A stretch of 64,000 bases of DNA, taken from assembly GCA_963797095.1 (NCBI GenBank), contig CAWCNY010000002.1, positions 768,001-832,000 of the forward strand, in the 5' to 3' direction. A model generated the notes under the pieces. The model ran no database searches and had not been told where the DNA came from. It was given only the letters and a program-made list of their open reading frames with translations. The DNA comes from an uncultured Chloroflexia bacterium. GTDB lineage: Bacteria; Chloroflexota; Chloroflexia; QHBQ01; JADMIH01. Below, one piece after another: positions 1 to 19,942 of this stretch. The position numbers were made by a program, and so were the translations under genes. The number at the start of each line of letters is the position of its first letter. Position 1 is the stretch's first letter.

Positions 1-123
1 ATGGCCCGCATCCGAGCCGCCAGAGACGCCACTATACCCTCCAACCAACAACAAGAGGGGACACCCTAAGGCATCCCCTCCACCAATCAGTCGCTACTCG
101 TCACTCGTTACTCGTCTTCCGAA

Positions 124-1791: not shown

Positions 1792-2071
1792 CCGGCCCTC
1801 TCCTCCCGCTCCTGCGTGTTTAGAATGTTCAGATCCTCCCATAAGGAACCTCGCTCCCTCGACACCCGGTACGCGCCACCTCTATCCAAATGTCTCTACC
1901 GGCTAATCACCTCGCTAACACCGCAAAACAAAACACTCTACCAACTACCACTCATCACTCGTCGCGTTCCACCCATCATATCAGCGCTTACCAGCAATTT
2001 CAATAATCTCTCTAAGCGATTTCCATAAGAAGGAGTTATATCATACAAATTCCAGGAGCCTCTACAGGGAC

Positions 2072-2449
2072 TTTTCCACATGGCTAGTGTATAAACTTAT
2101 CCACATTTCCACGCCCCCTGTGCATTCCCTCCTCGACCCTCCGATCCCAAACCGCAGCCGTCTACATCTTGTGCCGCCATGAGTAATACAATACCACATC
2201 TAGTGGGCTCTTGTCTAGTCCCTAGACATAAGATTCCCACACATTTTCCTCAGTAAATGAGGTCGATGTGGCGCGTACGCCGCTCTATAGATTACTACCA
2301 GGAGAACTAAGGTTATAGCAAGCCAAACGAAGTATAGGGTCTAATTAGGACCTGTTACACTTCGCTGAGTTTTGGGGCCTGTTGAGGGGGCTTTCCCGAA
2401 GCCCCGTTAAGATACGCTATCCACACCCAGGAGTCAAGACTTTTCCACG
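2072..2449. promoter_or_regulatory. DnaA-box cluster upstream of dnaA (autoregulatory and/or oriC)
   Basis: Perfect TTATCCACA at 2097-2105. Near-matches: TTTTCCACA 2072-2080, TTATACACT (- strand) 2086-2094, CTATCCACA 2417-2425, TTTTCCACG 2441-2449. All lie in the ~800-bp non-coding gap. Confidence 0.75.
2159..2206. promoter_or_regulatory. Tandem NrdR-box-like operators
   Basis: cgtCTACATCTTGtg (2159-2173) and ataCCACATCTAGtgg (2191-2206) resemble the NrdR consensus acaCwAtATaTwGtg and are 32 bp apart. Confidence 0.55.
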
Positions 2450-2596
2450 TTATTTTGGCGAAATCCCCATAACGATTCTGTGCATCCATCCTACCCGTAA
2501 TATTAGCAATACTCGCTAGAACATCCGCTCCAATCTCCCTGCGCCCGCCTACTCTCCCATCACATACACCATCAACCTCCGGTTGAACGTCCTTCC

Positions 2597-4300
2597 CTAA
2601 TCGGCCAACTGCGCCATCGTCCCCTCGACTATCGCTTTCACCGTTTCGTCGTTCAGGGCGAACTTCGCGCCCGCCGCCTCGAATAGTAGAGGCAATGGCT
2701 TCGATCCGCCAAGGGCCAATCCTCTCTTGTATTCCTCGATCGCCTTGCGTTCGTTCTCCAGCGAATTGAGCCAGATCCTCAGCGCCGCCAATTGGGCGAT
2801 CCCGTATTCCACGTAGTAGAACGGCACATCGAACACATGCGGATACTGCCACCCGATCTCGCGGTACTGCTCAAGGCCCGTCCAATCTAGCCCCTGCCTG
2901 AACCTCTCCTCAAGCTCAACCCACTTTTTGCGTCTCGCGGATGCGCTGTGGTCGTCTGCCGTGTATACCCAATGCTGGAATGAGTTGATCATCGCCATGA
3001 ACGGGAAGAAGCGCAGCTTTTCGCGCAATTGGTCTTTCAGCAGCCGTCCTCGTTCCTCTTCGCTATAGAACTCATCGAGATAGGGCCGCGAAAGCAATTC
3101 CATGCTCATCGAGGCCACTTCCGAGAACTCGTGAGTGGTGCTGTGGTAGCTGGGGATGGGGAGTTTTCTGGCCAGATAGTAGTGGAACGAATGGCCTCCC
3201 TCGTGCAGCAGTGTATCGACATCGTCCTTGGTGCCCACCGCGTTCATGAATATGAAGGGCACGCGCGTGTCCGATAGCATATCCATGTAGCCGCCCGGCG
3301 CTTTGCCCGGTCTGTTATCGAGGTCAAGCAGCTTCTGGTCGATCATCTCCCTGAAGTACTGGGCCAATTCGGGGTCGAGCCTGCTGACGATCCGGTAGCA
3401 CCCCTCCTCCAATTCCTCGACCGTCCTGAACGGCTTCATAGGAGGCGCGCCCCTTGGGTCCACTTCGGTATCCCATGGCCGCGGCGCGTCCAGGCCCAAC
3501 TGATCTGCTCGCCTCTCCCAATCTGTTGCTACCACCGGTGTGATATTGCGTGCTATGGCGTCGTGGAATGCCAGGCACTCCTCAGGCGTATAATCGAACC
3601 GCTTCATCTCCTGGAACTTATAGTCGCGGAAGTTCGGGAACCCTGCGTTGTGCGCGATCTTCTGCCGCACCTCGTACATCCTGTCGTACAATTCGTCCAA
3701 TGCCGGAGCGTCTGCCAGCTTGGCGTTCCACCGCGCCCGCCACGCCTCTTCCCTGGTTTCTCTGTCTTGCTCCTCAAGGAAAGGGAGCAACTGCGGTAAC
3801 GTGTATTTCTTCCCCCTGAACTCCGCCTCCTGCGCGCCCACGATTTTGTTGAACTCCTGCTCAAGCCTGCGGTCCTCCTGCATCAGAGGCACATTCTCCT
3901 CGCGGAATAGCTCCACCTCCGACCTGATGTTGCGCAGGTACACAAGGTAATCATCTCCCAGCTTATCTACCGCCGGAGACTCCAGGATCTTCCTCTTGAG
4001 CGCGAAATCTCTCTGCTCCTTGATAGGCAGCACGTCGTCCACGATCTGCAAATAGCGCGCTTCGTAATCCTGGTTGGTAGTGTCCACGGTCATATCGATG
4101 TACGCTACCGAATAGCACTCGTAGAGGACCGCGCTCAACTCCTCCCAATCCAGAATGAAATCCTCCAGTTTCGCCTTCGTACCGACAGATCGCAGCTCAA
4201 GCTCATCGTAAATGCGGTTCAAAGCCTCCGTATCCATAGGGTCAAGCTCCTCAGGCACGAACCTTCGAGGAGCCAGTCGTCGTGCTGTGAAATTAGGCAT
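2597..4300 (-). CDS. M3 family oligoendopeptidase (PepF-like)
   Basis: Zn motif HEGGH, GKAPGGY, EVASMSME, PFYYVEYG. Confidence 0.92.
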   Translation of the reverse strand: MPNFTARRLAPRRFVPEELDPMDTEALNRIYDELELRSVGTKAKLEDFILDWEELSAVLYECYSVAYIDMTVDTTNQDYEARYLQIVDDVLPIKEQRDFALKRKILESPAVDKLGDDYLVYLRNIRSEVELFREENVPLMQEDRRLEQEFNKIVGAQEAEFRGKKYTLPQLLPFLEEQDRETREEAWRARWNAKLADAPALDELYDRMYEVRQKIAHNAGFPNFRDYKFQEMKRFDYTPEECLAFHDAIARNITPVVATDWERRADQLGLDAPRPWDTEVDPRGAPPMKPFRTVEELEEGCYRIVSRLDPELAQYFREMIDQKLLDLDNRPGKAPGGYMDMLSDTRVPFIFMNAVGTKDDVDTLLHEGGHSFHYYLARKLPIPSYHSTTHEFSEVASMSMELLSRPYLDEFYSEEERGRLLKDQLREKLRFFPFMAMINSFQHWVYTADDHSASARRKKWVELEERFRQGLDWTGLEQYREIGWQYPHVFDVPFYYVEYGIAQLAALRIWLNSLENERKAIEEYKRGLALGGSKPLPLLFEAAGAKFALNDETVKAIVEGTMAQLAD

Positions 4301-4397
4301 TTGTGTTTGTAGTTCCTTTCCAGTGTCAAGCTTACCCTACATTATATATACAGACCCCTCTCCGCCAACAGGGTCGCGGGAAGTATCCTTTATCCCC

Positions 4398-6095
4398 TCA
4401 TACTCTCATCCCCTGCCACTTCCCCCCACGGAACCGCAGATAGAGCAATATCGCTCGCACCGACGCCTCCACGATCAGCGCCATGTAAATACCTACCAAC
4501 CCCAGGCCCAACCCCGGCACACAGGTGCTGGTGAATGGAACGCACACGGCAGGCAGGCCCAGGAACGCCCCCACCGGCAGGCGTATCAGCCACACCGCGC
4601 AACTGGTGACCCACATAGGGTAGCGCACATCGCCTGCACCCCTCAAAGCCCCGCCCAGCACGAACGCTATCGCCAGCATGGGCTGGTACAGCGCGATCAC
4701 CTTCAGGCTGTCTGCTCCCAGCGAGATAAGGCGGGGGTCGTCGGTGAACAGCCTTATCAGCGTATCCCCGAAGAAGAAGAACACCACCCCCATCAATCCC
4801 ATCCATATCACCGCCGAGCGGGTAGCCAGTTGCGCGCCCAACGTAGCCCGCCTGGGACTCTTCGCTCCCAGGCTTTGCCCAACCAGCGTGGTAGCCGCTA
4901 CCGCGAACCCGAACCCCGGCATCTGCGACAGGAACACGGCGTTAAGCGCCAGTCTCGAAGTAGCGAACACCACCTCGCCCAGCCCGATCACCAGCAAGCT
5001 GTAGATCAGGATCCCCAGCGACATGAATAACTGCTCCAGCGCCGATGGCAGTCCGATCTTCATCACCCGCCCGATGGTATCGAAGTTGGGCCGCCACGAT
5101 CCCACACCCAGCACCCTGAGCGTCGATCTTGGCATCAGGAAGACGCCAAGCAGCACCAACGTGCCAATCGTTCGTGCGATCACCGCCGCCCATGCCGACC
5201 CCGCGACGCCTAGCTCAGGTATCCAATCGAGGCCGGGAACGATCACCTGTCCTGAGCCGCCAACTGCGTGAAATATCCCCGTGATCCAGCCGCCCAGGAT
5301 ATCGCTGGCCTTATTGCCACCAAACACCAGCTCCACTGCCAGCACTGCATTGACTACGTTGATCCCGGCGGTCACCATCATAGGCGTGCGCGTGTCGCCC
5401 GCCCCTCGCAACGCCGCCCCTGCCACGAACATCATCACCAGCGGCAGCGCCGAAAAGAGCGTTATCCCCAGGTAGGTAGCTCCCTCGCCCGCCGCCTCGC
5501 TATCCAGGCCAACCAGCGTCATAAGCGGCTGCGCCAGAAACCCAACCGGTATCAACACCAGGCTTGCCGCCACCGACAGCAACAGCGATTGCTTCAGCAC
5601 TGCATTGGCGTTACTCCTCTGTTGCGCGCCGATATAGCGCGCCACCAGCACCGTGGTGCCCATGCTGATGGCGATGAGAGCCGTGGTCAATATCCAGATC
5701 AACTGCTGGGCCGCCCCCACGCCCGACAGAGCCGCCGTTCCAAGCCGCGCCACCACAGCAGTGTCCACGATCCCCAGTAGCGTCTGCAACGCGTTCTCGG
5801 CGATGGCGGGCCACGCCAGCCTGAACACCGTTCGCCCCACCGCGCGCCGCTCGTCTGCTGTCAGTTCGTCCTCATGCTCACCTACCTGAGGCTCCGTGAC
5901 CACAAGCCCATCCGCAATCGTTTCGGCCTGCGCCGCTACCTCTAGCCCCAACACCCCCGGCGCAAACATATCTGCAACTTCTGCCACTTCCAGTGCCGCC
6001 TCTTCCGCGACCACCGAGTTGAGCACGCTCCCGCCCTGCACACTTTGTGGCGCAGGCATCTCCTTTTCAACTTCTCTTTTGACAGTCGAACTCAT
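4398..6095 (-). CDS. MATE family efflux transporter
   Basis: Many TM helices; LAWPAIAEN...DTAVVARLG; twice-repeated LRGAGD motif. Confidence 0.92.
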   Translation of the reverse strand: MSSTVKREVEKEMPAPQSVQGGSVLNSVVAEEAALEVAEVADMFAPGVLGLEVAAQAETIADGLVVTEPQVGEHEDELTADERRAVGRTVFRLAWPAIAENALQTLLGIVDTAVVARLGTAALSGVGAAQQLIWILTTALIAISMGTTVLVARYIGAQQRSNANAVLKQSLLLSVAASLVLIPVGFLAQPLMTLVGLDSEAAGEGATYLGITLFSALPLVMMFVAGAALRGAGDTRTPMMVTAGINVVNAVLAVELVFGGNKASDILGGWITGIFHAVGGSGQVIVPGLDWIPELGVAGSAWAAVIARTIGTLVLLGVFLMPRSTLRVLGVGSWRPNFDTIGRVMKIGLPSALEQLFMSLGILIYSLLVIGLGEVVFATSRLALNAVFLSQMPGFGFAVAATTLVGQSLGAKSPRRATLGAQLATRSAVIWMGLMGVVFFFFGDTLIRLFTDDPRLISLGADSLKVIALYQPMLAIAFVLGGALRGAGDVRYPMWVTSCAVWLIRLPVGAFLGLPAVCVPFTSTCVPGLGLGLVGIYMALIVEASVRAILLYLRFRGGKWQGMRV

Positions 6096-6265
6096 CCTTA
6101 TATCCTTAGCCCAAATAGACTTATATCTAATAACTGGCCCATTTTTTAGGGCGGCTAGTCAGCCGCCCGTACTAATTATTAATTGCTTGTTAATTATAGC
6201 ACATCAACCCCATTCAACCACTCTATGCTTTCCCACTCCTCCAGAAAACGAACCAACAAAGAGAT

Positions 6266-6294
6266 TGTCATCCTGAGCGAAGCGAAGGATGACA
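6266..6294. repeat. Short extragenic palindrome (TGTCATCCTGAGCGAAGCGAAGGATGACA)
   Basis: 9-bp stem TGTCATCCT/AGGATGACA just downstream of hisS; resembles a widespread REP-like intergenic repeat. Confidence 0.5.
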
Positions 6295-6330
6295 GACCGG
6301 ACAGGGCAGCCTTCTGCCATATTTTCGTTA

Positions 6331-7695
6331 TTAACTACCCTGCAACATACTCGCAAGCATCCCGCGCTCCACTGTCTGCTGGTTGGGCGGTGGCACCTTC
6401 AAATTCTTCACCGTCACCGTGCCCGCTGCACGCTCGTCCGGCCCCATCACCAGCGCGAACGGTATCCCCAGCTTATCGGCATACCCGAACTGCTTGCCCA
6501 GCTTATCTCCGACATTGAGGTACACCTCTGAAGGTATACCCTGCTCTCTCAACTCGGTGACAAGCCGCGTGGCGTCCAGCACGCTCTCATGCGTACTATC
6601 GAACACCGTCACGAGCGCACGGCTCGGCGATGCCTGCGGAGTGATCATGCCCAGCGTGGTCATCACGTCAATGATCCTCTCGACCCCGAACGACCCGCCT
6701 GTGGTTGGCAAATTGCGCCCCGCGAACATCCCGATCAGGTTGTCGTATCTTCCACCGCCACCCAGCGACCCGATCTTCGGCTCATCTACCACGATCTCAA
6801 ACACCGCACCCGTATAGTAATCCAGCCCTCGCGCCAGCGTAACATCCACTTGGTAGCGGTCCAACTGCACCCCCATCCCCTCCAGAGCCGACAGGATCTC
6901 GCGCAGATTCTCCAATCCCCGCGTTGCTTCTGCATCATTCGCCAGCGGGCCTGCCAGCTCGGCTAGCAAGGCCGCGTTGTCCGCGAACCCACCCACCTTA
7001 CCGCCACTGGTGAACATCTCAAGCGCACGGCCTGCAGTCACCCTCGACACCCCGTTCTTGACCATTTCCTCAAGCACGCCCTCAGGACCGATCTTGTCCA
7101 GCTTATCCACCGCCCTGTAGATGCTGCCTGCCTGTGCTGCTTCTACACCCGCGCTTCGGGCCAAGCCCGCGAGCAGCGCCCGGTGGTTGATCAGCACCCT
7201 GTATTCCTTGAACCCCAGCCTGTCCATCACCTTCCCATAGATCGACAGCACCTCGGCATCGGCCAGCGGCGAAGCTGTGCCAACGATATCGATATCGCAC
7301 TGGTAGAACTCGCGGTATCGCCCGAACTGGGGGTTCTCGCCCCGCCACACCGGGCTGATCTGGTAGCGTTTCCAGGGTAACTGCAACTCGTTTAGGTGCA
7401 TCCCCACCACGCGCGCCAGAGGCACCGTCAGGTCGAACCTCAGCCCCACCTTCCGCTTGCCCTGGTCCTCGAACCTGTACATCAGGCGCTCGTCCTCGCC
7501 GTACTTCCCTTCAAGCGTGGCTGCGTACTCAAGCGAAGGCGTTTCCAGCGCCGCGAACCCGTGCAACTCGAACACCGACCGCAAAGTGTCCATAACATGC
7601 TGCCGCACAAACATGCCGGTGGGCAGGTGATCCCGAAACCCCTTCAATCTCTGGGCCTCGATACGCTTAGGTTTCTCTTGTTCGTTATTGGACAT
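6331..7695 (-). CDS. hisS: Histidine--tRNA ligase
   Basis: LRFDLTVP, motif 2 WRGENPQFGRYREFYQCDID, ARGLDYYTG, GGGRYD. Confidence 0.97.
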   Translation of the reverse strand: MSNNEQEKPKRIEAQRLKGFRDHLPTGMFVRQHVMDTLRSVFELHGFAALETPSLEYAATLEGKYGEDERLMYRFEDQGKRKVGLRFDLTVPLARVVGMHLNELQLPWKRYQISPVWRGENPQFGRYREFYQCDIDIVGTASPLADAEVLSIYGKVMDRLGFKEYRVLINHRALLAGLARSAGVEAAQAGSIYRAVDKLDKIGPEGVLEEMVKNGVSRVTAGRALEMFTSGGKVGGFADNAALLAELAGPLANDAEATRGLENLREILSALEGMGVQLDRYQVDVTLARGLDYYTGAVFEIVVDEPKIGSLGGGGRYDNLIGMFAGRNLPTTGGSFGVERIIDVMTTLGMITPQASPSRALVTVFDSTHESVLDATRLVTELREQGIPSEVYLNVGDKLGKQFGYADKLGIPFALVMGPDERAAGTVTVKNLKVPPPNQQTVERGMLASMLQGS

Positions 7696-7763
7696 CGCTC
7701 ATCTTCCTCCCCAACTCTATAAGCCTGGACTCCCCTTAATTATATCCTAACCACACCACCACG

Positions 7764-8291
7764 GTGATAGACATGCAAGGCTGATGCAAAGTCGGTATCG
7801 GACACACCAGGTTTGGTTGCTGTCGCATACCACGGACATTGCTCAAGTGCGGGCGCTACTCGCAGGCGTCCTGCCCATACGCCATCAGCCATACGCCACC
7901 CCCATATAGTCCCGAAGGGACGGCAGAGAGTAACCCAGAGCGTAAGCCCTGTGGTAAGCCCAAGATGATGCCATAGCCCCGTAGGGGCGTAAGAACCAGC
8001 ACTCTGCTATACTATTGATGCAATGCTCTTACGTCCCTTCGGGACTATATGGGGGTGGCGTATGATCCACAGGGCTTGCGCCCTGGGCTACTTTCTTACG
8101 TCCCTTTGGGACTTTGGCTTGGGTGGCACACACCCGAATTCGCAGAGCTATACCGTCACTATGCTCAACAGCACAATCTACTGGTAAGCACCGGCTCCGA
8201 CTCGCACGGCCCACCTGACCCTCTACCGATAAAATACCCGGCATCCCTCAGAAGGAACCTTCTGGAGCGTTGCGGAGTGGCCGTAGAATAG
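7764..8291 (+). pseudogene. Remnant of a PHP-domain phosphoesterase gene disrupted by a REP cluster
   Basis: The C-terminal part ...NLLVSTGSDSHG... is a PHP terminal motif. Decayed N-terminal-like fragments lie upstream, and the middle is occupied by palindromic repeats. Confidence 0.5.
7890..8112. repeat. REP/BIME-like palindrome cluster
   Basis: Four hairpins (GTCCCGAAGGGAC, GCCCCGTAGGGGC, GTCCCTTCGGGAC, GTCCCTTTGGGAC). Perfect 33-bp inverted repeat 7890-7922/8032-8064; imperfect IR 7931-7954/8067-8090. Confidence 0.8.
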
Positions 8292-8374
8292 GATAAGGAT
8301 AGGATATCGCCCTCAATTCCACACCGAATCCACACGATCCACAGTCCGCTTCCCCCATCATATAATCGCCTTGT

Positions 8375-11300
8375 ATGAGCGATTTCACTTATCTCTTTGT
8401 CCACACGCATTTCAGCCGTGCGGGCGGTCCCGCTTCACCCTCTGAATGGTGCAAGCGCGCGCTGGAACTAGGATACACCTCCATCGGCATGGCCGACCGC
8501 TCGCCCCTTTCCGGCTGGCCCGCCATGCACCGCGCCGCCCGCCAATCCGGTCTCGGCCTTGTTTATGGCGTGGAGGTCGATATTGTCCTCCCTCCGATTA
8601 ACAGCCCCAAGACTAAAGCGCCTATCGAACCCGCTGCCCAGGGTACCCTCTTGCTGGCACGCTCCCCCGAAGGTGCTCGTAACCTGGCTCACATGGCTTC
8701 CAGCGCCTACGCCCACTGGCCTTCCCACGAAACCCCCATACCCTGGGATGCCCTTGCCGCCCATCATGACGGCCTCTTTCTCATACTCCCCGGCGGCGAC
8801 GAAGCAGGCGCTCCTCAGCCTATCGCAGGCCAGGACGCCCGCAAAGCAGAAGCCTGGGCAGCCGCGCTCAAATCCGCCTTTGGCAACTCTCTCTATATTG
8901 GTCTGCCCCACTCAGGCAGGCCCGGCGATACCGCTCTCGCCGAGGCAATAGCGTCTCGCGCCCAGAGCCTGGACCTGCCCCTTGTGGCCCTGCCCCCCGC
9001 CCGCTACCTCCTGTCCGGCGACGCACCCGCTTATGAGGCTCTCAAAGTAGCCAGGTTCCGTGCAGGCTGGCCCCGCGAAATCGCCAATCTCCCCGCCTCT
9101 ACCGGCTCAATCGCTTCTGACCGTGCTGGTTACGACTACCTACGCTCCCCCGACGAGGCACTTGCGCTCTACAGCCGATGGCCTGCCGCTATCGAGAGCG
9201 CTGCACACATATCGACCGAGGTCGCCCGAATTGATACGTGGCCTTTTGAGACCCCAGATACCAACCACGCCCGCGCTTCCCTTCTAGAGATCGTTGAGCA
9301 ACGCCTTTCTCAATTGCCCGAATTCGTTGCACCTACTGAGTTGCTCACTCGTATCGAGAGCGAGCTTGATAGGTCGAGCCGTTGGGGTGTCGCAGGTGCG
9401 TGGTCGGCCCTTGCAGCTTTGGCAACGCATGCCCAGGATGCGCGAGAGCCTGTGCCAACCGGCTCGCCTGTGGGTCACGCTATCAACTCCTCTCTTGCCT
9501 ATACGCTGGGTGTATCCACAACCACGCCTGCCGATCCTCCCACTTCAGTCCAAATCGAGTCCCCACCCTTCCCAGGCGTCACCTTACCCTCAGCCGGGCG
9601 TTCTTTGCTGCTCAACCGCCTAGCTGAAGAATATGGGCCGGATAGAGTGGCCTATGCCGCCTGCGCCCTCGACATTATGCCTGTACAGGCGCTGGCCGCC
9701 TCGGCAGCCGTCCTCGCTGTGGACAGTAACACGGTGCGAAGCATCATTCTCGCTGCTATAGACGGTGGCTGGCAAGCCCTTGCGAACGCCACCGGAAGCG
9801 ACCCGATCATCCCTACCCTGGCAGACCTCGCCATCGCCCTCAAAGGCGCGCCCATCAGCTCCGTGCCGGACCGGGATACCGCCCTGGTTTCCCCACGTGC
9901 TATCTATGCAGGTTCGACGCTAGCCTCCTGGTTGCCGCTCTTGCAACCTCCAGTTGGTGCGTCCTCCCCGTTGCCCTCGTGGTCGCCCTGGTCCGCCGAA
10001 TCTCTTGCTTCGCTTGGTTACCCCGCTATCCACCTCCCTACCTCCCAGCAACTCGACGCTCTGCACGCCGCCCTGCGACTCGCACTCCGCTATCCTGTGC
10101 CCGGCCTCGCGCTTCCCCCTGCCGATGCCGGCCCCGATGCGCTCTCGGCGGCTCTCCACTCCCAGCATCCTTCCGCCTACTTCGCGGGCGCTCTTGATAC
10201 CGCATGGCGGCACGGCGAGGCCGTTTCTGTAGCCCCTCTGGCTGCCGAAGCCCACAAACTGGGCATCAAGATTGAGCCGCCTCACGTCAATTTCAGCCTT
10301 GAGCATCATACGTTACAGCGCGACGGCAACTCCTGGTCTATACTGTGGGGATTGGCCGCGCTTCCGGGCTGGAGTCCTGCCGCTACCCAAAGCTTCATTG
10401 GTGCTCGCCCGCCAGGCGGTTTTCCGTCCCTCTCCGCAGTGGTTGAAGCGGCCCTATCGTCCGGCCTTGATATTTCCCACCTGCGCACCCTCATCCTCGC
10501 GGGCGCCTGTGATACTCTCGGCGAACGCCCACGCGACCGCCATGCCTTGCTGTCTGCGCTCCCCTCTCTCTTCGAGTGGGCCACATCCCAGGCAACCCGG
10601 GGCGGCCCTGGCGGGGCCAACCAGCTCGACCTCTTCAGCGCTCCTGCCACTCCACCTCCACTTGAGGAAGACCTGCGCGAAGATAACGCCCAGACCTCGT
10701 TTGATGCAGTCCCTACTGCTTACTCTCCCTACGAGCGGTATCTTCGCAATCGCTGGGAGCGCGACAAACTGGGCGTCACATTCACAGAAGCAGACGAGAT
10801 GCACGCCCTTATCGCCGTTCTCGAAGACTCCGGGGCTTTACGCTCCCGTCTCACTTCGACCGAAAGCATCAATGCCAAACAGATAGGCGCGAGCATCCAT
10901 ATAGTGGGTATTCTCTGTGAAATAGCCTTTCTCGAAGGCCAAGATGGCGATACGTTGGCAGTATGCAGCCTACAGGACCCTTATGGCACCCTGGAACTGG
11001 TCACTTTCCCGCCTAACTACAAACGCCACACCTCTTTGTGGGTCGAAAACACCCTTGTTGCCGTTACCGCTCGCGTTCAGGCTCACCAGGATGGCAGTCT
11101 CTATCTCCTGTGCGAGCACCTTGCCCTGTTCACCGCAGGGGCCACCGACGAAAGCTTCAGTATCACAATCAAGACCAGGGCTGCCAGGGGCGCAGCCGCC
11201 AACAAGGAAGCCTCGCAAACTCCCAAACCCGCCTCATCTGCTCGCCCCGACCTCAAGATCGTAGCCGCCCCACCTCCCGAACCGAGGCGAGAGCCACAGC

Positions 11301-11575
11301 CCGCCGCGCCTTCGGGTACGCCCAATTTCAGCCTCATAATCAGCATCCCCGATGCCGATGAAGACCAGCCCGTGATCGACAGCGTAATAAGTCTCAAACG
11401 CCTCCTCGAAGAGTACCCCGGCCCCGACACCGTCACCATCAGGGTTCCCTATATCCGGGGCAGATGGACTTCCGCAAGCCTCTCCTGGGGTGTCGGCTAC
11501 AGCCACCAGCTCGAATCGCGCATCCGCCGCCTCCTAGGCGATGACGCTATAGCCGTGATCCAATTGGCAAGCTGA
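8375..11575 (+). CDS. Catalytically inactive DnaE (Pol III alpha)-like protein
   Basis: Colinear with DnaE: PHP, palm remnant (SLAYTLGVS..P; EYGPDRVA), PPHVNFS, HhH, LILAGACD, QLDLF, OB fold, C-terminal domain. Catalytic PDxD is replaced by PGVT and KxD by AIH. Confidence 0.85.
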   Translation: MSDFTYLFVHTHFSRAGGPASPSEWCKRALELGYTSIGMADRSPLSGWPAMHRAARQSGLGLVYGVEVDIVLPPINSPKTKAPIEPAAQGTLLLARSPEGARNLAHMASSAYAHWPSHETPIPWDALAAHHDGLFLILPGGDEAGAPQPIAGQDARKAEAWAAALKSAFGNSLYIGLPHSGRPGDTALAEAIASRAQSLDLPLVALPPARYLLSGDAPAYEALKVARFRAGWPREIANLPASTGSIASDRAGYDYLRSPDEALALYSRWPAAIESAAHISTEVARIDTWPFETPDTNHARASLLEIVEQRLSQLPEFVAPTELLTRIESELDRSSRWGVAGAWSALAALATHAQDAREPVPTGSPVGHAINSSLAYTLGVSTTTPADPPTSVQIESPPFPGVTLPSAGRSLLLNRLAEEYGPDRVAYAACALDIMPVQALAASAAVLAVDSNTVRSIILAAIDGGWQALANATGSDPIIPTLADLAIALKGAPISSVPDRDTALVSPRAIYAGSTLASWLPLLQPPVGASSPLPSWSPWSAESLASLGYPAIHLPTSQQLDALHAALRLALRYPVPGLALPPADAGPDALSAALHSQHPSAYFAGALDTAWRHGEAVSVAPLAAEAHKLGIKIEPPHVNFSLEHHTLQRDGNSWSILWGLAALPGWSPAATQSFIGARPPGGFPSLSAVVEAALSSGLDISHLRTLILAGACDTLGERPRDRHALLSALPSLFEWATSQATRGGPGGANQLDLFSAPATPPPLEEDLREDNAQTSFDAVPTAYSPYERYLRNRWERDKLGVTFTEADEMHALIAVLEDSGALRSRLTSTESINAKQIGASIHIVGILCEIAFLEGQDGDTLAVCSLQDPYGTLELVTFPPNYKRHTSLWVENTLVAVTARVQAHQDGSLYLLCEHLALFTAGATDESFSITIKTRAARGAAANKEASQTPKPASSARPDLKIVAAPPPEPRREPQPAAPSGTPNFSLIISIPDADEDQPVIDSVISLKRLLEEYPGPDTVTIRVPYIRGRWTSASLSWGVGYSHQLESRIRRLLGDDAIAVIQLAS

Positions 11576-11753
11576 TCTCCACCGGCGCATTCCGAAGATA
11601 CCGGCAACCTCTGCTTTCTCTACAAGGCAGCCCCTGCCCTCAATCGCGGGTTCACGGCTTTGTTTCCTTGCAGCGCCAAAGATAGGACCTCAGGCCGATG
11701 CTTGCCTTTTTGCTCCATGTTATCCTAATCCGACACCACACAAGGAGAATGCA

Positions 11754-13115
11754 TTGGCGAAAGACACATCCTCGGAGCAAGACCTACCTAAGAACCTGGG
11801 TGACGGATTAGTGATGCGTAGGGCCACCCTCGAAGACCGTGAGAGGGTCGCCGATTTCCACGCCAATACCCTCCTCGACATAGGGCAAAAAGGCCCCGAT
11901 GAGCCTATGCGCCGCTGGATGCTCGACATGATGAGTGGCGAGCATCCCACTCTCAGGGCCACCGACTTCATCATTGTAGAAGACACAACCACAGGCAAGG
12001 TTGTCTCCTCTATGTGCCTGATCTCGCAGACCTGGACCTACGATGGTATCCCTTTCAAGTTTGGGCAGCCCGAAATAGTCAGCACTGACCCTGCTTACCG
12101 CAGACGAGGCCTTGTGCGCGCCCAATTCAACGAGATTCACCGGTGGAGCGCGGAACGAGGTGAGTTGGTGCAAGGCATCACAGGCATACCCTGGTATTAC
12201 CGGCAGTTCGGCTACGAAATGGCCGTGAACCTCGGCGGCAGTCGCCAGGGTTACAGGCCCAATGTTCCCAGGCTCAAAGAAGGCGAGCAGGAGCCGTACA
12301 ACGTTCGCAAAGCCACCACCGATGACATACCCCTCATCATGGACATGTACAGGCAGGCGGCCTCGCGCTCCCTCATAGCTTCTGTTCGCGATGAGGCTAT
12401 CTGGCGCTACGACCTTGAAAAGCGCACACGGGAGAGTGGCTTTAGCATCGAGTTACGCATAATTGAGACTCTCGAAGGCAAGCCTGTGGGCGTGCTGGCG
12501 CATTCATGGCGCTTGTGGGGGCCGAGCTTGAACACCCACCTCTATGAGACCATACCCGGTATGCCTCTCCTGGCAACCACCCCCACTGTCCTGCGTTACC
12601 TGGATGCCACGGGAGTAGAGTATGCCAAGCGCCCCAGCACTGAAGATGAGCCGAAGGACTTCGGGATCATTTCTTTTGGCCTGGGCGCTCAACACCCCGT
12701 ATATGACACGATTCCAAACAGATTGCCCCGTGTCAATAAACCCTACGCCTGGTATATTCGCGTGCTCGACCTGCCAGCCTTCGTGAACCGCATCGCTCCT
12801 GCTCTCGAAAAGCGTCTTGCCGAATCGGCGCAGGCAGGCTACGCAGGCGAGCTGAAGATCAACTTGTTTCGCACAGGACTTCTCCTCAAGTTCCAGGAGG
12901 GAAGTCTATCGGTGGAAGCCTGGAAGCCAGACCGCGTCGAGGAGGGAGATGCAGCCTTCCCCGACCTAATTTTCCTGCAACTCCTTTTTGGCTACAGGTC
13001 GCTGGAAGAACTGAGGTATGCTTTCCCCGATTGCTCCGCGAACACCGACACCGGTCGTGCCCTCATGCCTATCCTCTTCCCCAGGAAAGACTCCCACGTT
13101 TGGGCCGGGGGCTGA
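11754..13115 (+). CDS. GNAT family acetyltransferase (Eis-like tandem GNAT)
   Basis: Acetyl-CoA motif VSTDPAYRRRGL, YYRQFGYE, second GNAT-like repeat. Confidence 0.8.
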   Translation: MAKDTSSEQDLPKNLGDGLVMRRATLEDRERVADFHANTLLDIGQKGPDEPMRRWMLDMMSGEHPTLRATDFIIVEDTTTGKVVSSMCLISQTWTYDGIPFKFGQPEIVSTDPAYRRRGLVRAQFNEIHRWSAERGELVQGITGIPWYYRQFGYEMAVNLGGSRQGYRPNVPRLKEGEQEPYNVRKATTDDIPLIMDMYRQAASRSLIASVRDEAIWRYDLEKRTRESGFSIELRIIETLEGKPVGVLAHSWRLWGPSLNTHLYETIPGMPLLATTPTVLRYLDATGVEYAKRPSTEDEPKDFGIISFGLGAQHPVYDTIPNRLPRVNKPYAWYIRVLDLPAFVNRIAPALEKRLAESAQAGYAGELKINLFRTGLLLKFQEGSLSVEAWKPDRVEEGDAAFPDLIFLQLLFGYRSLEELRYAFPDCSANTDTGRALMPILFPRKDSHVWAGG

Positions 13116-13126
13116 GCCTGCCAATA

Positions 13127-13183
13127 ACGAGTGACGAGTGACGAGTGACGAGTGACGAGTTGTTAGTTGTCACTCGTCATTGG
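13127..13183. repeat. Heptamer tandem repeat (ACGAGTG)~5 plus inverted copy
   Basis: Directly visible; the same unit occurs at 96-116 and 17044-17070, each just after a stop codon. Confidence 0.85.
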
Positions 13184-13458
13184 GCCGAAACCAGTACTAG
13201 CAGTCCTAGCCAACACTAGCGAGTACTCCTAATCTCCCCCCGGCCCGGATTCCGCTTTAATGCGCACTATTAGATAGTCCTATATGCCTAGGACGTACTA
13301 TCTCCCATGCATGAGTAGTACCTATGTCATAATCCCTTTTATTGACTCCTTTCTCTGCGCTTTGTTATAGTCAATATGACACGCTCCTGGTCAGTCGCGC
13401 ACTGCTGCTGCCATGTTCTACGCTAAACTCGTGGGGCGCGAACTCAGGATGGAGAAAT

Positions 13459-14253
13459 ATGGACAAAACACCGATAAAAGTTGTCATCGCCGATAGCCAC
13501 GATCTATTCCGCCAGGGTCTCTCCAGTCTGCTCGCTCGTCAGTCCGATATTCAGATCGTGGGTGAGGCCAAAGATGGTGCTGAGCTAATTAGCATGATGC
13601 ACGATCTGGAGCCTCAGGTCCTCCTCATGGAAATCTATATGAGAGGCGTGGATGGTCTGCAAACCGTTTACGATATCATGGCCGAATATCCCGACACCAC
13701 AGTCGCCATACTTACATCTTCCGAAGACGACAATGATGTGCTAACCGCCGTCAAAATGGGTGTGAAGGGTTATATACTCAAAAACAGCAGCCTGGACGAG
13801 CTTGTCCAGGCGGTCCAGGCGCTCTCATCGGGCGGCGCTTACTTCTCCAGCAGCATGTTCACCAAAGTGCTCCAGGAGTTCACCCACCTGGCCCGCAGAC
13901 GCGACCTCCAGGAAGCCAAGGGGATAGACGCCCTTACCGAGCGTGAGAAGGACGTGCTTCGCCTGGTTGCCAAAGGCTCCACCAACCGCGACATCGCGGA
14001 CGAACTGGTAATCACCGAGAACACCGTGAAAGTGCACCTGCGCAATATCCTGGATAAATTGCAGTTGCGTAACCGCCAGCAGGCTGCGGCCTACGCGGTC
14101 CAGGAAGGTCTCATTTCTCGCGTTCTCCCCACCAACCGGGGCTACAACGGCTACAGCAACACATCCTCGGCGGCTCTTGCCACCCCGCGTAGCGTCCCCA
14201 GCCACGATGAGATACGTGCTCGCCTCAGCGAGTACAAAATCCGCATCCGCTAG
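13459..14253 (+). CDS. NarL/LuxR family response regulator with atypical receiver (Asp->Glu)
   Basis: REC domain plus LuxR HTH (LTEREKDVL...TVKVHLRNI); the phosphoacceptor position reads LLMEI; GGAGA SD before ATG 13459. Confidence 0.9.
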   Translation: MDKTPIKVVIADSHDLFRQGLSSLLARQSDIQIVGEAKDGAELISMMHDLEPQVLLMEIYMRGVDGLQTVYDIMAEYPDTTVAILTSSEDDNDVLTAVKMGVKGYILKNSSLDELVQAVQALSSGGAYFSSSMFTKVLQEFTHLARRRDLQEAKGIDALTEREKDVLRLVAKGSTNRDIADELVITENTVKVHLRNILDKLQLRNRQQAAAYAVQEGLISRVLPTNRGYNGYSNTSSAALATPRSVPSHDEIRARLSEYKIRIR

Positions 14254-14261
14254 ATCAAGTG

Positions 14262-14306
14262 AGTAACAAACAAATCCCCGCCACTCGCGGGGATTTGTTT
14301 GTTACT
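14262..14306. terminator. Bidirectional intrinsic terminator
   Basis: Perfect 20-bp stem with 5-nt loop between the convergent regulator and polX genes. Confidence 0.8.
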
Positions 14307-16083
14307 TCCCTCTATTCTTCAGCCACTTCTCTAACTTATCGAGCGGCCATGTTGTAATGATCCTGTCGGCGGTGGCCCACCCGCGCCTGGCTGTGTGCAC
14401 TCCATATTCTATGAAATCGTAGTTGCTGGGATAATGCGCGTCGGTATCCACGGCCAGCAAGCACCCTGCCTTCATCGCTTCCTGTATGTAAACATCGTCC
14501 AGGTCAAGCCTGTCGGGAGCCGAGTTCACTTCAAGTGCGGTACCCGTTTTCGCCGCCTCCCTTATTACCGCTCCCACGTTCATAGCCGACGGCTCGCGCT
14601 GGTTGATCAGCCTTCCGGTCGGGTGGCCCAGGATGTCAACGTGCGGGTTGCGCACTGCGTTCAGCGCTCGCCTCGTTACCTCTTCCCCTGGCTGCCTGAG
14701 CCCATTATGAATAGATGCCACCACTACATCGAGCCACTCAAGCACCTCATCGGGGAAATCGAGCGTGCCATCGGTCTTGATCTCAAGCTCGATCCCGTGG
14801 AAGATGCGGAAACCTCCGCCGATGCTCTTCTCCGCCGCCTCGATCTCCCGCCTTTGCGCTCTCAGTCTCTCAACCGTCAGCCCCCTCGCTATCGTAAGGC
14901 TCTGGCTGTGGTCGGTGATCGCCATATACTGGTATCCGCGCTCCTTCGCGGCCCGCGCCATGGTCAATATGCTCTCCGAGCCGTCGCTCCAGGTCGAATG
15001 GCAGTGCAGATCCCCCTTTATGTCCGCTACCTCGACCAGCGTGGGAAGTGTACCCCTCTCCGCCGCCTCGATCTCTCCCCGGTTTTCCCGCAACTCAGGC
15101 GGCATCCAATCCATGCCTAAAGTCCGGTAAATATCGGCTTCATTCTTAATTGGAATGGGTGTGCCGTCGCTGCGCTGTAGACCATATTCATTCAATTTCA
15201 GCCCCATCTTTATGGCACGGTCCCGTAAGGCGATATTGTGTTCCCGCGACCCGGTGAAATGCTGCAACAGCGATGGGTAATACCCGGGGTCCATCACATA
15301 CAGGTCTACCTGGATTCCGTTGTTGAGCCGCACCGTCGCCTTATTCGCCCCTCGCAGGTCCACCACATCCACCATCGGCAGCCCCACGAAGCAATCAAGC
15401 ACCTCGTTCACATCGGTGGCCGTGGCAAGGAAGTCCATATCGCCCACCGTCGCTTTCCACCTTCGCACCGACCCCGCCACCTCCAGCCTGTCGAGCGTCT
15501 TGCACTGCGCTCTCATCAATTGCATCATCTGGCGGGCGAGGGGCAGCGCCGTCCCTAGCAGGTCGCGCTTCTCGGCGCTCCGCTTTTGGATCGCCACCAA
15601 CCCTTCCTTGATGATCTCCACAGTTTTCGGCCCGAAGCCGGGCACGGTCGCAAGCCTTCCGTCCTCGATAGCCTTTTCCAGGTCGGCGATTCCCTGTATT
15701 CCCAGCGTCTGGTACATGTGCATCGCCTTTTTCGCACCGACGTGCGGTATCTCCGTCACCGCTATCAGCGAAGGAGGCACCTCATTCAGAAGGCGCTCGT
15801 AGAAGCGCAGATGCCCGGTCGTAAAAAGCTCATGTACCTTGTCGGTGATCGCCTTGCCCACCCCCGGCAGTTCGTCCACTCGCCCTTCCCGCCATACCTG
15901 CTTCAAATCTTCGTGCAGGTTGGCGAAGGTATCCGAGGCGGTGCGGTATGCCCGTACTTTGAACGGCGATTCACCCTTCAACTCCATTATCGAGGCGATC
16001 TCCGAGAAGATGCGCGCGAAGGTGGCGTTCGTGAAGTTCGCGGCTTCGGGGCTCATTGTGTATTGCCGATCTGTAGTGTTCAT
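14302..16083 (-). CDS. polX: DNA polymerase X with PHP 3'-5' exonuclease domain
   Basis: HhH repeats, GSVRR..TVGDMD, QVDL, HFTGS, PHP motifs DLHCHS, TDHS, DTDAH. Confidence 0.95.
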   Translation of the reverse strand: MNTTDRQYTMSPEAANFTNATFARIFSEIASIMELKGESPFKVRAYRTASDTFANLHEDLKQVWREGRVDELPGVGKAITDKVHELFTTGHLRFYERLLNEVPPSLIAVTEIPHVGAKKAMHMYQTLGIQGIADLEKAIEDGRLATVPGFGPKTVEIIKEGLVAIQKRSAEKRDLLGTALPLARQMMQLMRAQCKTLDRLEVAGSVRRWKATVGDMDFLATATDVNEVLDCFVGLPMVDVVDLRGANKATVRLNNGIQVDLYVMDPGYYPSLLQHFTGSREHNIALRDRAIKMGLKLNEYGLQRSDGTPIPIKNEADIYRTLGMDWMPPELRENRGEIEAAERGTLPTLVEVADIKGDLHCHSTWSDGSESILTMARAAKERGYQYMAITDHSQSLTIARGLTVERLRAQRREIEAAEKSIGGGFRIFHGIELEIKTDGTLDFPDEVLEWLDVVVASIHNGLRQPGEEVTRRALNAVRNPHVDILGHPTGRLINQREPSAMNVGAVIREAAKTGTALEVNSAPDRLDLDDVYIQEAMKAGCLLAVDTDAHYPSNYDFIEYGVHTARRGWATADRIITTWPLDKLEKWLKNRGK

Positions 16084-16199
16084 ATCTTAGGGCACTCTTC
16101 AAATGTTGGGTCTCGATGCCGGACAAGCACAATCAATGCCAGGATGTGTGGCGTTGGTCAGGGCGATCTCAGATCGCCCTATTGTTGGCTGGATACCTG

Positions 16200-16973
16200 C
16201 TAATCTTCCAGCATTCCGTGCTCGCGGGCGTATTGCGCGGCAGCCTCGCGCCCTGATAGGCTTAGTTTGCGATAGACTTCGGACAAATATGTGCGCACCA
16301 TTCCCTCGGATAACCCGGTGCGCCGGGCAACCTCATCGTTGCTCAACCCATTTGCGAGCAGCCGGAGGATGGCCCTTTCATTCGATGTAAGCAGCGCTTC
16401 AGTGATGAGCGAATTGGTTCCTGGGTGCATATCGTCGTCCCTGGCATCGCTCCCAAGCTCACCGCTCGAAAGGATTCCAGTGATGTAGCTGCCGGTAATG
16501 GGATGCCCTTCGCTTTGCAACAATGGGGTCTCGCCTGCCATTACGTCCCGGATGGTATCGAGCAATGCCTCGCTCCCGGCGTCTTTCAACACGTAGGCGC
16601 TTGCCCCTGCTCGCCTGGCTTCGCGCAGGTGCTCGTCTCCCTTGAACATGGTGAGCGTAATTACTAATATGCCCGGATATGCATCGGCGAGTTTGCGGGT
16701 CGCCTGCATGCCATCCATGCCAGGCATATTGATATCCATCAGCACAATGTCGGGGTGGAGCGTCTCCACTTTATCCAGGGCCTCTCCCCCATCCGCGGCC
16801 TCGCCCACCACCTCCACATCAGGCTCCAACTCAAACATCGAGCGAAGACCCTTTCTATACAGGGCATGGTCGTCTACAATTAAGAGCGTGATCTTCCCGC
16901 TTGCGGGCCGCAACCGTCCGTATGGCGAATTAGCCACGCGGGAAAACCAGATACCGCTCTTATCTGAAGACAT
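16200..16973 (-). CDS. NarL/LuxR family response regulator
   Basis: VDDH, LMDINMPGMDG, YVLK and C-terminal LuxR HTH. Confidence 0.9.
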   Translation of the reverse strand: MSSDKSGIWFSRVANSPYGRLRPASGKITLLIVDDHALYRKGLRSMFELEPDVEVVGEAADGGEALDKVETLHPDIVLMDINMPGMDGMQATRKLADAYPGILVITLTMFKGDEHLREARRAGASAYVLKDAGSEALLDTIRDVMAGETPLLQSEGHPITGSYITGILSSGELGSDARDDDMHPGTNSLITEALLTSNERAILRLLANGLSNDEVARRTGLSEGMVRTYLSEVYRKLSLSGREAAAQYAREHGMLED

Positions 16974-17079
16974 AAGATGCCCCTTCTTTGAAACGTGATG
17001 CTTGCCTATTGCATATTCCGTACTGCGTAGTACTTATCCCACTACTCGTCACTCGTCACTCGTCACTCGCCATCACGTC

Positions 17080-18102
17080 TCACGTATCTTGCCCCAACGC
17101 TTCAATCAATTCATATGCTACAGTGGCAGGGTCGGTATTTCGTGCCATAAGCTCATTTAGCGCCTGGTCCAACTTGCCATTGCCCTCGAAGTCTTGCCTC
17201 AGCCGCCGGAGAATAAGCTCGCGCGCTCTATCCAACACTTCAACTCGCAATCTCTCTCTGCGTTCCTGTTCGTATAGCCCATGCTCGACCATATACGCTT
17301 TGTGTCGCTTGATCGTCCCTGCCAGTTCTTCGATGCCTTTGCCCTCAGATGCTACCGTCTTCACAATAGGCGGTATCCACGCGCCTTCGGGGTGGGGCAG
17401 CAACCGCATGGTAGTTTTGATGTGATTGGCAAGCCGGTCAGCGCCTTCGCGGTCGGCCTTATTGATCACTATCACATCGGCCACCTCCAGCACTCCTGCC
17501 TTCAGCGCCTGTATATCATCGCCCATGCCTGGCACTTCGATCAGCAGCGTGGTGTCGGCAAGCCCCGCGATAGAGATCTCGTCTTGCCCCACTCCCACAG
17601 TCTCGATGATGATTATATCACGCCCAAAAGCGTCCAGTACCCTTACCACATCCACGGTGGCTGCCGCAAGCCCGCCAAGCTGCCCGCGTGACGCCATCGA
17701 GCGTATGAATACCCCCGGATCGCTGGTAAAGCCGAGCATCCTCACCCGGTCGCCCAGGATGGCGCCCCCACTCATCGCCGATGTTGGGTCCACAGCCACT
17801 ACACCCACAGTATTGTCGTGGCCGCGATAGTACTTGATCAATTCGTTGACAAGCGTGGATTTGCCGGCTCCCGGTGGCCCTGTCACGCCTATTATGTGCG
17901 CGCGCCCGGTGTGCGGAGCAACCAGGCGCAACGCCTCTCGATAGCCTCTTTGCCTGTTTTCCACGAGGGTCATCAGGCGCGACGCCGCCGCCCTATTCCC
18001 ACCAAGCAGTCTCTCGACAAAATCAGCTACTGTACCGGTTGCGGTGACGGGCCTCAGACCTGCCTTTGCGTCCTGGGCTTGCGGTGCGCTTTTGCCTGCC
18101 AT
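17080..18102 (-). CDS. meaB: MeaB/ArgK GTPase, B12-mutase chaperone
   Basis: GPPGAGKS, AVDPTS..SGGAILGDR, ETVGVGQ, NKAD. Confidence 0.93.
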   Translation of the reverse strand: MAGKSAPQAQDAKAGLRPVTATGTVADFVERLLGGNRAAASRLMTLVENRQRGYREALRLVAPHTGRAHIIGVTGPPGAGKSTLVNELIKYYRGHDNTVGVVAVDPTSAMSGGAILGDRVRMLGFTSDPGVFIRSMASRGQLGGLAAATVDVVRVLDAFGRDIIIIETVGVGQDEISIAGLADTTLLIEVPGMGDDIQALKAGVLEVADVIVINKADREGADRLANHIKTTMRLLPHPEGAWIPPIVKTVASEGKGIEELAGTIKRHKAYMVEHGLYEQERRERLRVEVLDRARELILRRLRQDFEGNGKLDQALNELMARNTDPATVAYELIEALGQDT

Positions 18103-18106
18103 GCCC

Positions 18107-18577
18107 CTATTCTTCCTCGCCAGCTATGCGCGGTGTGACGTTGTCGCGCACAAACTTTACCGCTTCTTCCATAGGAGTGCCAGGTCCGAACACACCTGCG
18201 ATGCCCATTTCCTTGATCGCCGGGATGTCGTCGTCTGGAATGATCCCACCTGCGTACACCAGCACATCATCCAGCCCGCGCTTGCGCAATTCCTCCATGA
18301 CACGCGGGAAAAGCGCCATATGCGCCCCCGACAGGATAGACAGTCCAATCGCGTCAACGTCTTCCTGCAACGCTGCTTCAGCGATCATCTCCGGCGTCTG
18401 GTGCAACCCGGTGTAGATCACTTCCATACCCGCGTCGCGCAAGGCACGCGCGATGATCTTGGCTCCCCGGTCGTGCCCATCCAGGCCGGGCTTGGCGATC
18501 AGCACCCGAATCTTACGGCCTATATCGGTCGCTGCTTCTCTTTTCTCCTGCGTATGGGATGGCGACTTTGCCATCAT
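18107..18577 (-). CDS. Cobalamin-binding small subunit of acyl-CoA mutase (IcmB-like)
   Basis: [10 protein letters not shown] (DxHxxG), [14 protein letters not shown]. Confidence 0.93.
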
Positions 18578-19612: not shown

Positions 19613-19942
19613 ATAAACCCCAGTGAATTAACGATAGTGAGATTAGCAAACGGCCTGTGCGCCCATTCCCATCGGCAAAAGGATGAATCGCCTCAAAATG
19701 ATAGTGGAGTAATGCTAAACTCACCAAACGTGGCAAGTCATGATCTGCTGTAAGGTATCTTTCAAAGGAACCAAGAAGTTCAGATAATTCACTTGCAGGT
19801 GGTGGCACATATCGGGCGTTTCGTATGCGATCACTTCCTATCCAGTTTTGGCTTGTGCGAAATTCACCTGGATGGGAGTACTCACCACGCACTCCTGACA
19901 TGAGAAGCTTATGCATTTCACGTACTAACATCAGATCAACAG

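Follow-up and report, generated by a model that had tools for sequence, protein, structure and literature searches.

A catalytically dead DnaE1 homologue as a candidate replisome adaptor in a Chloroflexia lineage

A 64,000-nucleotide stretch of the genome of an uncultured soil Chloroflexia bacterium (GenBank assembly GCA_963797095.1, contig CAWCNY010000002.1, positions 768,001 to 832,000), referred to here as the window, contains an intact gene whose product, P0001, is built like the DnaE1-type alpha subunit belonging to DNA polymerase III (Pol III) but has lost the residues of polymerase catalysis. The gene is under purifying selection and occupies a dnaE1-type locus, and the pattern of constraint along the protein is the inverse of that found in canonical DnaE1. 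The same genome encodes a separate, active C-family polymerase, P0163, which lacks modules that P0001 has kept. The explanation favoured here, with a probability of roughly 0.58, is that the dead DnaE1 serves as a non-catalytic adaptor of the replisome, encoded at the lineage's own dnaE1 locus.

An intact DnaE1-type protein without catalytic residues

The reading frame of P0001 is free of internal stops over its 1066 amino acids and the NCBIfam models for DnaE1 span residues 3-1061, which bears out the initial annotation in its description of a 1066-codon frame without stops that resembles Pol III alpha from end to end. The scores lie far under the cut-offs, with 180.5 bits for the DnaE1 equivalog NF004226 versus the 1002 bits required, while in NF005298 residues 592-1061 correspond to positions 764-1150 of a model of 1151. 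The best solved relative by sequence is E. coli alpha (5fku; phmmer, E 4e-23), whose PDFDVDF is aligned opposite PPFPGVTL of P0001. Comparison with DnaE structures had been proposed as a check, and an AlphaFold2 model resting on an alignment of 21 family sequences (predicted local distance difference test, pLDDT, 80.7; predicted template modelling score 0.68) matches them best: the top Foldseek matches are 2hpi, 7pu7, 4iqj, 3e0d and 5fkv (E 1e-36 to 1e-40), full-length Pol III alpha proteins of Thermus, M. tuberculosis and E. coli. P0001 has the fold and the domain order of DnaE1.

The modules which the annotation had listed as retained, namely the helix-hairpin-helix (HhH) region, the clamp-type motif QLDLF, the OB fold and a DnaE1-like C-terminal domain (CTD), are confirmed, QLDLF by alignment and the others by Pfam, by NF005298 and by the model. 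The Pfam OB match at residues 851-916 reaches 26.1 bits, just below the cut-off of 27, and the model places the β-strands of the OB fold at 840-918 and a folded α/β unit, the CTD, at 985-1063. Low confidence (pLDDT < 50) is seen at residues 745-751, 765-781 and 923-981. According to a survey of the family, a CTD following the OB fold is found in DnaE1 and in no DnaE2 (PMC3919608). An assignment of P0001 to DnaE2 is opposed by the presence of the CTD, by a score for the DnaE2 model NF004225 of 104.4 versus the 939 bits required, and by the absence of the catalytic residues.

The polymerase core has degenerated. Neither PF07733 (palm) nor PF17657 (fingers) was matched in a Pfam scan of P0001; in longer orthologues positions ~3-170 of PF07733 are matched weakly (E 1e-4 to 1e-14), and PF17657 is unmatched in short and long forms of the family alike. 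The remnants of the PDxDxD, GRGS and KxDxLG motifs, like QLDLF, are found at the residues at which they were first noticed, and read P400-G401-V402-T403-L404-P405, P365-V-G367-H368 and A551-I-H553-L-P-T. At the positions of the three catalytic carboxylates, D401, D403 and D555 in E. coli, P0001 carries F, G and H, none of them acidic. This loss is a property of the family, as had been proposed for testing: an Asp or Glu at either PDxD position or at the KxD position occurs in 0 of 37 non-redundant members, the second PDxD position is a Gly in 35 of the 37, and neither the Lys of KxD nor the Arg of GRGS is kept in any of them.

The PHP domain has suffered likewise. When scored against five intact Chloroflexia DnaE1 proteins with the full PHP signature, only two of the nine metal ligands remain in P0001 (H10 and E67), in agreement with the earlier view that most had been substituted. 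An intact site reads HHDHEH[C/H]DH according to a second survey (PMC12926913); it is not needed in every DnaE1. The fingers, a large part of which had been reported missing, are interrupted between residues ~583 and 590 by a gap of ~190-200 residues relative to canonical DnaE1 and to longer members of the family. This deletion is restricted to the subclade of the window (G000, G014, G015 and G017), and most orthologues measure 1200-1310 residues with degenerate fingers still present. Judged by its residues, P0001 is catalytically dead.

The gene has nevertheless been maintained by selection. Seven orthologues came out of a protein search (45-66% identity), and PF07733 is recorded for none of these; in an exhaustive search of representatives the family stands at 38% identity or more, separated by a gap from ordinary DnaE proteins at 29% or less. 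Orthologues, whose collection had been recommended, are present in 25 of 25 further genomes from the genus, or in 22 of 22 if three unpublished ones are set aside; among 35 genomes from other families, none yielded the gene at E <= 1e-30. No full-length copy has an interrupted reading frame, and the dN/dS ratio, predicted to lie below 1, is 0.19-0.23 in four pairs with an unsaturated dS of 0.42-0.91. Genomes G009 and G019, compared with each other, give a ratio of 0.232 in the dead gene and of 0.164 in the active polymerase. The dead gene is under purifying selection and is not decaying.

Constraint is spread over the protein differently from an active polymerase. Mean identity within the dead family is 0.57-0.58 in the CTD, 0.54-0.55 in the OB fold, of which 24 of 135 columns are invariant, and 0.38-0.40 in the palm and thumb. 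Canonical DnaE1 shows the opposite ranking: 18 such proteins from the class have 0.61 in the palm and thumb, 0.45 in the OB fold and 0.38 in the CTD. The constraint is inverted in the dead family relative to canonical DnaE1. The QLDLF of P0001 is aligned with the GQxx[LM]F site of five Chloroflexia DnaE1 proteins, and across 17 family rows the LF is kept in 16 and the Q in 11, so that the motif is retained in most members, as had been expected. Selection, motif loss and retained modules agree with the original proposal of a selected, non-catalytic gene that keeps the modules for replisome contact.

A dnaE1-type locus and the active polymerase P0163

The only PF07733 match in the genome is P0163, a protein of 1240 amino acids which supplies the separate active dnaE whose existence the annotation had wished to see confirmed. 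Its motifs are intact (PDIDLD, RGS and KMDLLG), 3 of the 9 PHP ligands are kept, and the protein stops ~50 residues past the OB fold without a CTD. At the site homologous to the clamp motif Q-x-x-L-F is absent, and a pattern scan of nine P0163 sequences from the genus yielded no conserved clamp motif. P0163 falls under both NCBIfam cut-offs, with 769 of 1002 bits for DnaE1 and 644 of 939 bits for the error-prone DnaE2, and it lies in a CTD-less clade in both trees that were calculated (support 98-99), in which bona fide DnaE2 proteins (L079, L075 and P0013, which pass NF004225) form a sister subclade. By tree position and NCBIfam cut-offs it is neither PolC, DnaE1 nor DnaE3. Its nearest relatives outside the order have 1030-1120 residues and include the second dnaE of a genome with an intact DnaE1.

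Two lineage-specific inserts were observed in P0163, at ~98-170 in the PHP domain and at ~972-1140 between HhH and OB fold, together with a conserved tail of ~50 residues after the OB fold. Inserts and tail are absent from the nearest relatives in genomes with an intact DnaE1 and are candidate docking sites. One genome of the genus, G012, has two full-length CTD-less active copies (L038, G012:C57, and L061, G012:C18), ~65-66% identical to P0163.

Judged by sequence, no C-family polymerase with intact catalysis other than P0163 turned up in the genome. A DnaE1-type PF07733 match is found in 0 of 25 genus genomes, ten of which are at least 90% complete and three of which consist of 8-30 contigs (G000, G003 and G025), while families f4, f5 and f7-f10 have one. 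Other polymerase genes of the genome comprise one Y-family gene (PF00817, on another contig) and two A-family genes, accompanied by two DnaQ-like genes; a B-family polymerase was searched for in the genome without a match. The second A-family gene (G000:C6:470042-473452) lies in an open frame of 1598 codons; its Pfam DNA_pol_A match comes in three parts, separated by long inserts that could be inteins or insertions.

The descent of the dead gene can be read from its profile and its surroundings (Table 1). Against the family profile every CTD-bearing DnaE1 of the comparison set scores 339-460 bits and every CTD-less DnaE, P0163 included, 207-296 bits, and 16 CTD-bearing DnaE1 proteins align in one stretch which ends at profile position 1172-1210 of 1215. 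The gene order MatE, HisRS (-), dead dnaE (+), LuxR-type regulator (+) and polX (-) is found throughout the genus; the GNAT gene stands at its place in the window only and is absent from the orthologous loci examined. Catalytically intact dnaE1 genes are likewise paired with a convergent polX at 4 of 4 loci examined in family f8, and in one f7 locus an intact dnaE1 has upstream of it an M3 peptidase similar to the one in the window. As this pairing also flanks intact dnaE1, the gene of the window would occupy the ancestral dnaE1 locus. Architecture, profile scores and synteny together suggest that the dead gene represents the lineage's own dnaE1 locus and not a spare paralogue. The initial annotation had called it a DnaE paralogue, and of this the homology to DnaE stands, while the protein looks like the orthologue of DnaE1 in its lineage.

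The neighbourhood of dnaA had also been pointed out, at 6.6 kb; the distance measured is 6.5 kb. A link to the origin of replication was considered and did not emerge. Over positions 1-20000 of the window the GC skew takes strongly negative values (-0.30 to -0.07) and keeps its sign near dnaA, so the lack of a switch there gives no link of the dead gene to an origin, and dnaN is found ~684 kb away on the same contig, dnaA and dnaN thus not being adjacent.

Table 1. Features of the window and of two further genes elsewhere in the genome. Positions without prefix refer to the window.
Feature	Position	Strand	Remark
dnaA	124-1842	-	6.5 kb from dead gene
Histidyl-tRNA synthetase (HisRS)	6331..7695	-	divergent upstream neighbour; synteny kept within genus
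Dead DnaE1-type gene (P0001)	8375..11575	+	1066 codons and stop, ATG start
PHP domain, residues 1-285	8375..9229	+	degenerate metal site; Pfam PHP 9-177, E 3.4e-17
Degenerate palm/thumb, residues 286-590	9230..10144	+	least conserved folded part of the family
PDxDxD remnant PFPGVTLP, residues 398-405	9566..9589	+	both catalytic Asp substituted
KxDxLG remnant AIHLPT, residues 551-556	10025..10042	+	third Asp replaced by H553, Lys by A551
Fingers-deletion junction	10121..10144	+	~190-200 residues gone in window subclade
Tandem helix-hairpin-helix module, residues 630-718	10262..10528	+	Pfam HHH_6, E 2.6e-9
Clamp-binding-type motif QLDLF, residues 750-754	10622..10636	+	low-confidence linker, probably disordered
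OB fold, residues 786-920	10730..11134	+	from Pfam OB, model and conservation
Pro/Ala-rich linker, residues 921-984	11135..11326	+	variable, identity 0.24, modelled unstructured
DnaE1-type CTD, residues 985-1066	11327..11572	+	most conserved part of the family
GNAT acetyltransferase gene	11754-13115		between dead dnaE and LuxR-type regulator
LuxR-type response regulator	13342..14253	+	downstream and equally oriented at every orthologous locus with sufficient flank
PolX with PHP domain	14302..16083	-	convergent with dead dnaE1
Active C-family polymerase P0163	L035:471-4190	-	~735 kb from dead gene, same contig
dnaX (tau, P0283)	L116:688-2580	-	

The dead form can be traced beyond the genus. G027, a genome of the sister family f3 in 8 contigs, encodes a homologue of 1296 residues (E 9.5e-102 to the family profile, ~29% identity) which is devoid of any of the motifs and joins the clade of family f1 with full support on a very long branch; like the genus genomes, G027 holds only the dead and the CTD-less gene. 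As a dead homologue is present there, the inactivation seems to predate the genus. Other genomes of families f2 and f3 carry further degenerate derivatives. Two such forms are a 719-residue frame in G029 (L155:148-2307), without PHP and with a fingers remnant, HhH, OB fold and CTD kept, and a degenerate DnaE1-like form of at least 753 residues in G026 (L156:1315-3573), in which the PHP histidines are lost as well.

A proposed adaptor of the replisome and competing explanations

The contact partners of a replicase are encoded in the genome, which has both dnaN and dnaX. The dnaX product tau (P0283, 631 residues) has a conserved C-terminal domain at ~485-575, followed by a variable Gly/Pro-rich stretch and a tail motif, P..ET.RG.A.MN.F....F, at residues ~606-627, which is invariant over 20 sequences of the genus. 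A model of the complex between residues 591-1066 of the dead DnaE1 and residues 480-631 of tau reached the mark applied, with a score of 0.61 versus 0.00 for the best of three controls; this mark is passed by 58 of 80 solved complexes and by 2 of 110 mismatched pairs, which are rough counts obtained with alignments of our own. The runs share at least 50% of their contacts and the partner has a pLDDT of at least 68. In the modelled interface, tau 605-629 lies on CTD 991-1037, the tail motif making most of the contact, with invariant or nearly invariant positions on both sides. The complex model supports binding of tau by the dead CTD as a prediction, and binding of the clamp through QLDLF is probable from the motif.

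A mechanism consistent with these results would begin with an ancestral dnaE1 which lost polymerase and PHP catalysis and, in the subclade of the window, most of the fingers. Purifying selection would have kept the contact modules: the CTD to hold tau, a clamp motif of the form Qxx(L)F, and HhH and OB fold for binding DNA. The dead DnaE1 would sit in the replisome, bound to tau by its CTD and to the clamp by QLDLF, with HhH and OB fold holding DNA. The chemistry would be performed by the CTD-less P0163, which has no such handles and to which the dead DnaE1 would supply coupling to the replisome, either directly or via shared DNA and clamp. Such an arrangement would resemble that of ImuB serving DnaE2 in mutasomes. 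What we infer is that the dead DnaE1 binds the clamp, touches the active enzyme in some way and has a role in chromosome replication. A wider formulation, in which the replicase has been rebuilt across an order-level lineage with DnaE1 as a dead scaffold for tau and clamp and a polymerase from the DnaE2 side, a group viewed as dispensable enzymes of repair, as the sole replicative catalyst, is put forward tentatively, at somewhat less than even odds.

Several observations weigh against an adaptor at the ancestral locus. In both phylogenies, FastTree with 80 rows and LG+C20 PMSF with 39 rows, a long stem carries the dead clade, which falls between DnaE1 and the groups without a CTD, and neither nests it inside the DnaE1 of Chloroflexia. 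The approximately unbiased (AU) test rejects a grouping of the dead clade with Chloroflexia DnaE1 (log-likelihood 37 lower, p 0.009; LG+G4 with 22 rows and a group named after the tree was known). A long-branch pull following the functional shift is the likely cause of this tree position, yet the conflict stands. The clamp motif has lost its Q in 6 of 17 rows and is absent from one. Complexes of alpha and tau have already been solved (4iqj and 5fku), so the pass of the complex model may reflect likeness to these rather than retained binding. All genomes are metagenome assemblies (G000 has 8 contigs and is 93% complete). No RNA runs containing the dead gene were listed, and one DNA run contained 0.31 of the sampled words.

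Sister lineages add two further difficulties for the adaptor. In families f2 and f3 (G026 and G028-G039), 12 of 14 assemblies are without a catalytic C-family gene when searched with PF07733, with P0163 and, in five of them, with G027's own active DnaE; within these families such a gene was found only in G027 and as a fragment in G038. The assemblies are 71-91% complete, and absence from 12 of 14 makes a systematic loss of such genes from bins possible. The missing polymerase could be due to loss in assembly or binning, or to something stranger. In family f6 (L081, L082 and L083 in G058, G048 and G053) a single CTD-less DnaE of 963-1095 residues is apparently present, and since this family seems to run on it, a CTD-bearing adaptor would not be generally needed. 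In the tree the f6 protein has a long branch and groups with the DnaE1 side, and the family may have another unusual replicase arrangement within Chloroflexia.

An unlikely alternative, though one that fits much of the same evidence, is that the dead DnaE1 is a decoy or regulator which occupies the tau and clamp sites and thereby limits or times the access of the active polymerase, as might be useful when cells grow slowly or are stressed, without a productive partnership. It would be served by the same retained modules and the same purifying selection, and a response regulator as conserved downstream neighbour on the same strand would suit it. The target of such competition is uncertain, however, as the active enzyme lacks the CTD and shows no clamp motif where DnaE1 has one, and HhH and OB fold are conserved as strongly as the CTD, which would be needless in a decoy that blocks protein sites only.

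It is improbable that an intact DnaE1 exists but is systematically missing from the assemblies, with the dead copy as an accessory side branch. The metagenomic origin of the genomes, the lack of a catalytic gene in most f2 and f3 assemblies and the position of the dead clade outside Chloroflexia DnaE1 in the trees and the AU test would all accord with this. Against it stand the absence of a DnaE1-type PF07733 match from every one of the 25 genus genomes, several of them near-complete or in few contigs, the gene content of G027, and the position of the dead gene at the dnaE1-polX locus.

Equally low odds can be given to a scaffold for repair, that is, a protein which has left the replisome to work with PolX or with the single Y-family polymerase through clamp and DNA binding. 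The polX gene lies 2.7 kb downstream in a conserved pairing, and the analogy with ImuB itself stems from repair; but the pairing is ancestral and flanks intact dnaE1 as well, hence is unspecific, and the part conserved best is the CTD that is modelled to bind tau. The tie to a mutasome suggested by the initial annotation found no support. No imuA/imuB-type cassette is found near either dnaE, and neither has a Y-family or RecA-like gene among its neighbours; those of P0163 are housekeeping genes, and the sole Y-family gene lies far off. A classical mutasome cassette has been rejected on these grounds.

Least probable is either a decaying pseudogene or a polymerase still active via other residues. 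Decay would fit the faster evolution than at neighbouring genes (37-55% identity versus 64-81% for HisRS, MatE and PolX at the same loci), and activity a Glu that 25 of 37 members carry where PDxDxD has its third Asp. Decay is rejected in view of open frames, the dN/dS ratio and occurrence across the genus, with homologues detectable across the order. Activity is opposed by the lack of acidic residues at all three catalytic positions, which holds for 37 of 37 members, and by the deleted fingers of P0001.

Dead polymerases in other systems and meaning for the lineage

P0001 shares with the solved DnaE1 proteins of E. coli, Thermus aquaticus and M. tuberculosis the fold and the order of PHP, palm/thumb, HhH, clamp motif, OB fold and CTD; with intact relatives in a related family it shares the type of genomic locus. 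The C-terminus of tau is bound on the CTD in DnaE1, and in P0001 by model only. What sets P0001 apart from them is the loss of the three carboxylates, of the KxD Lys, of the GRGS Arg and of seven of the nine PHP ligands, fingers that are degenerate or deleted, a score of 180 out of 1002 bits and the inverted conservation.

The idea of a dead polymerase as a scaffold is known already. In eukaryotic Pol epsilon an inactive second polymerase module is retained for assembly of the replisome. That module belongs to the B family and is fused to the active one in a single chain, whereas here two separate genes lie ~735 kb apart. A functional likeness is also found in ImuB, likewise a dead polymerase homologue with a clamp motif that occurs beside a CTD-less polymerase of the DnaE2 side. 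ImuB, however, is a Y-family protein linked to imuA and dnaE2, while P0001 is a C-family protein without a cassette shared with the active dnaE; P0001 in addition keeps a CTD modelled to bind tau, appears to be derived from a replicase, and has a partner that seems to be the only C-family catalyst of the cell and not an accessory enzyme.

Two further comparisons come from the literature. Replisomes with two polymerases, PolC together with DnaE3 or DnaE1, have two active C-family proteins with divided labour (PMC12926913); the number per genome is the same here, with one of the two dead. PolX proteins with an inactivated polymerase site are also known, in which the PHP exonuclease is retained (PMC12926913). 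The polymerase site of P0001 has decayed in a similar way, but its PHP domain is dead too and it is the contact modules that were kept.

In two broad surveys every bacterial species is said to have a catalytic DnaE1 or DnaE3, in one of three replicase combinations, and dead homologues are described, in the passages covered, for the Y and X families only (PMC12926913), while DnaE2 is treated as a non-essential accessory and a few divergent 'DnaEX' proteins are set aside (PMC3919608). A polymerase-dead C-family homologue was not found in the full text of the literature covered, although 'DnaEX' or supplementary tables might hold cases. As far as these searches reach, a dead member of the C family at the replicase locus beside a sole catalyst from the DnaE2 side is new.

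The lineage appears to break both rules of the surveys, the universal presence of DnaE1 or DnaE3 and the accessory status of DnaE2. Under current annotation the label would be either hypothetical or DNA polymerase III subunit alpha, so that the replicase gene would be misreported. If the reading of P0001 as an adaptor beside a sole active P0163 is true, the lineage would be the first bacterial case with no active DnaE1, DnaE3 or PolC, and its dead family would be the first C-family pseudo-polymerase. It would then show how one replicase may give way to a paralogue, would provide a parallel in bacteria to the dead polymerase modules that eukaryotic replisomes contain, and would be a natural experiment that separates the architectural parts of alpha from its chemistry.

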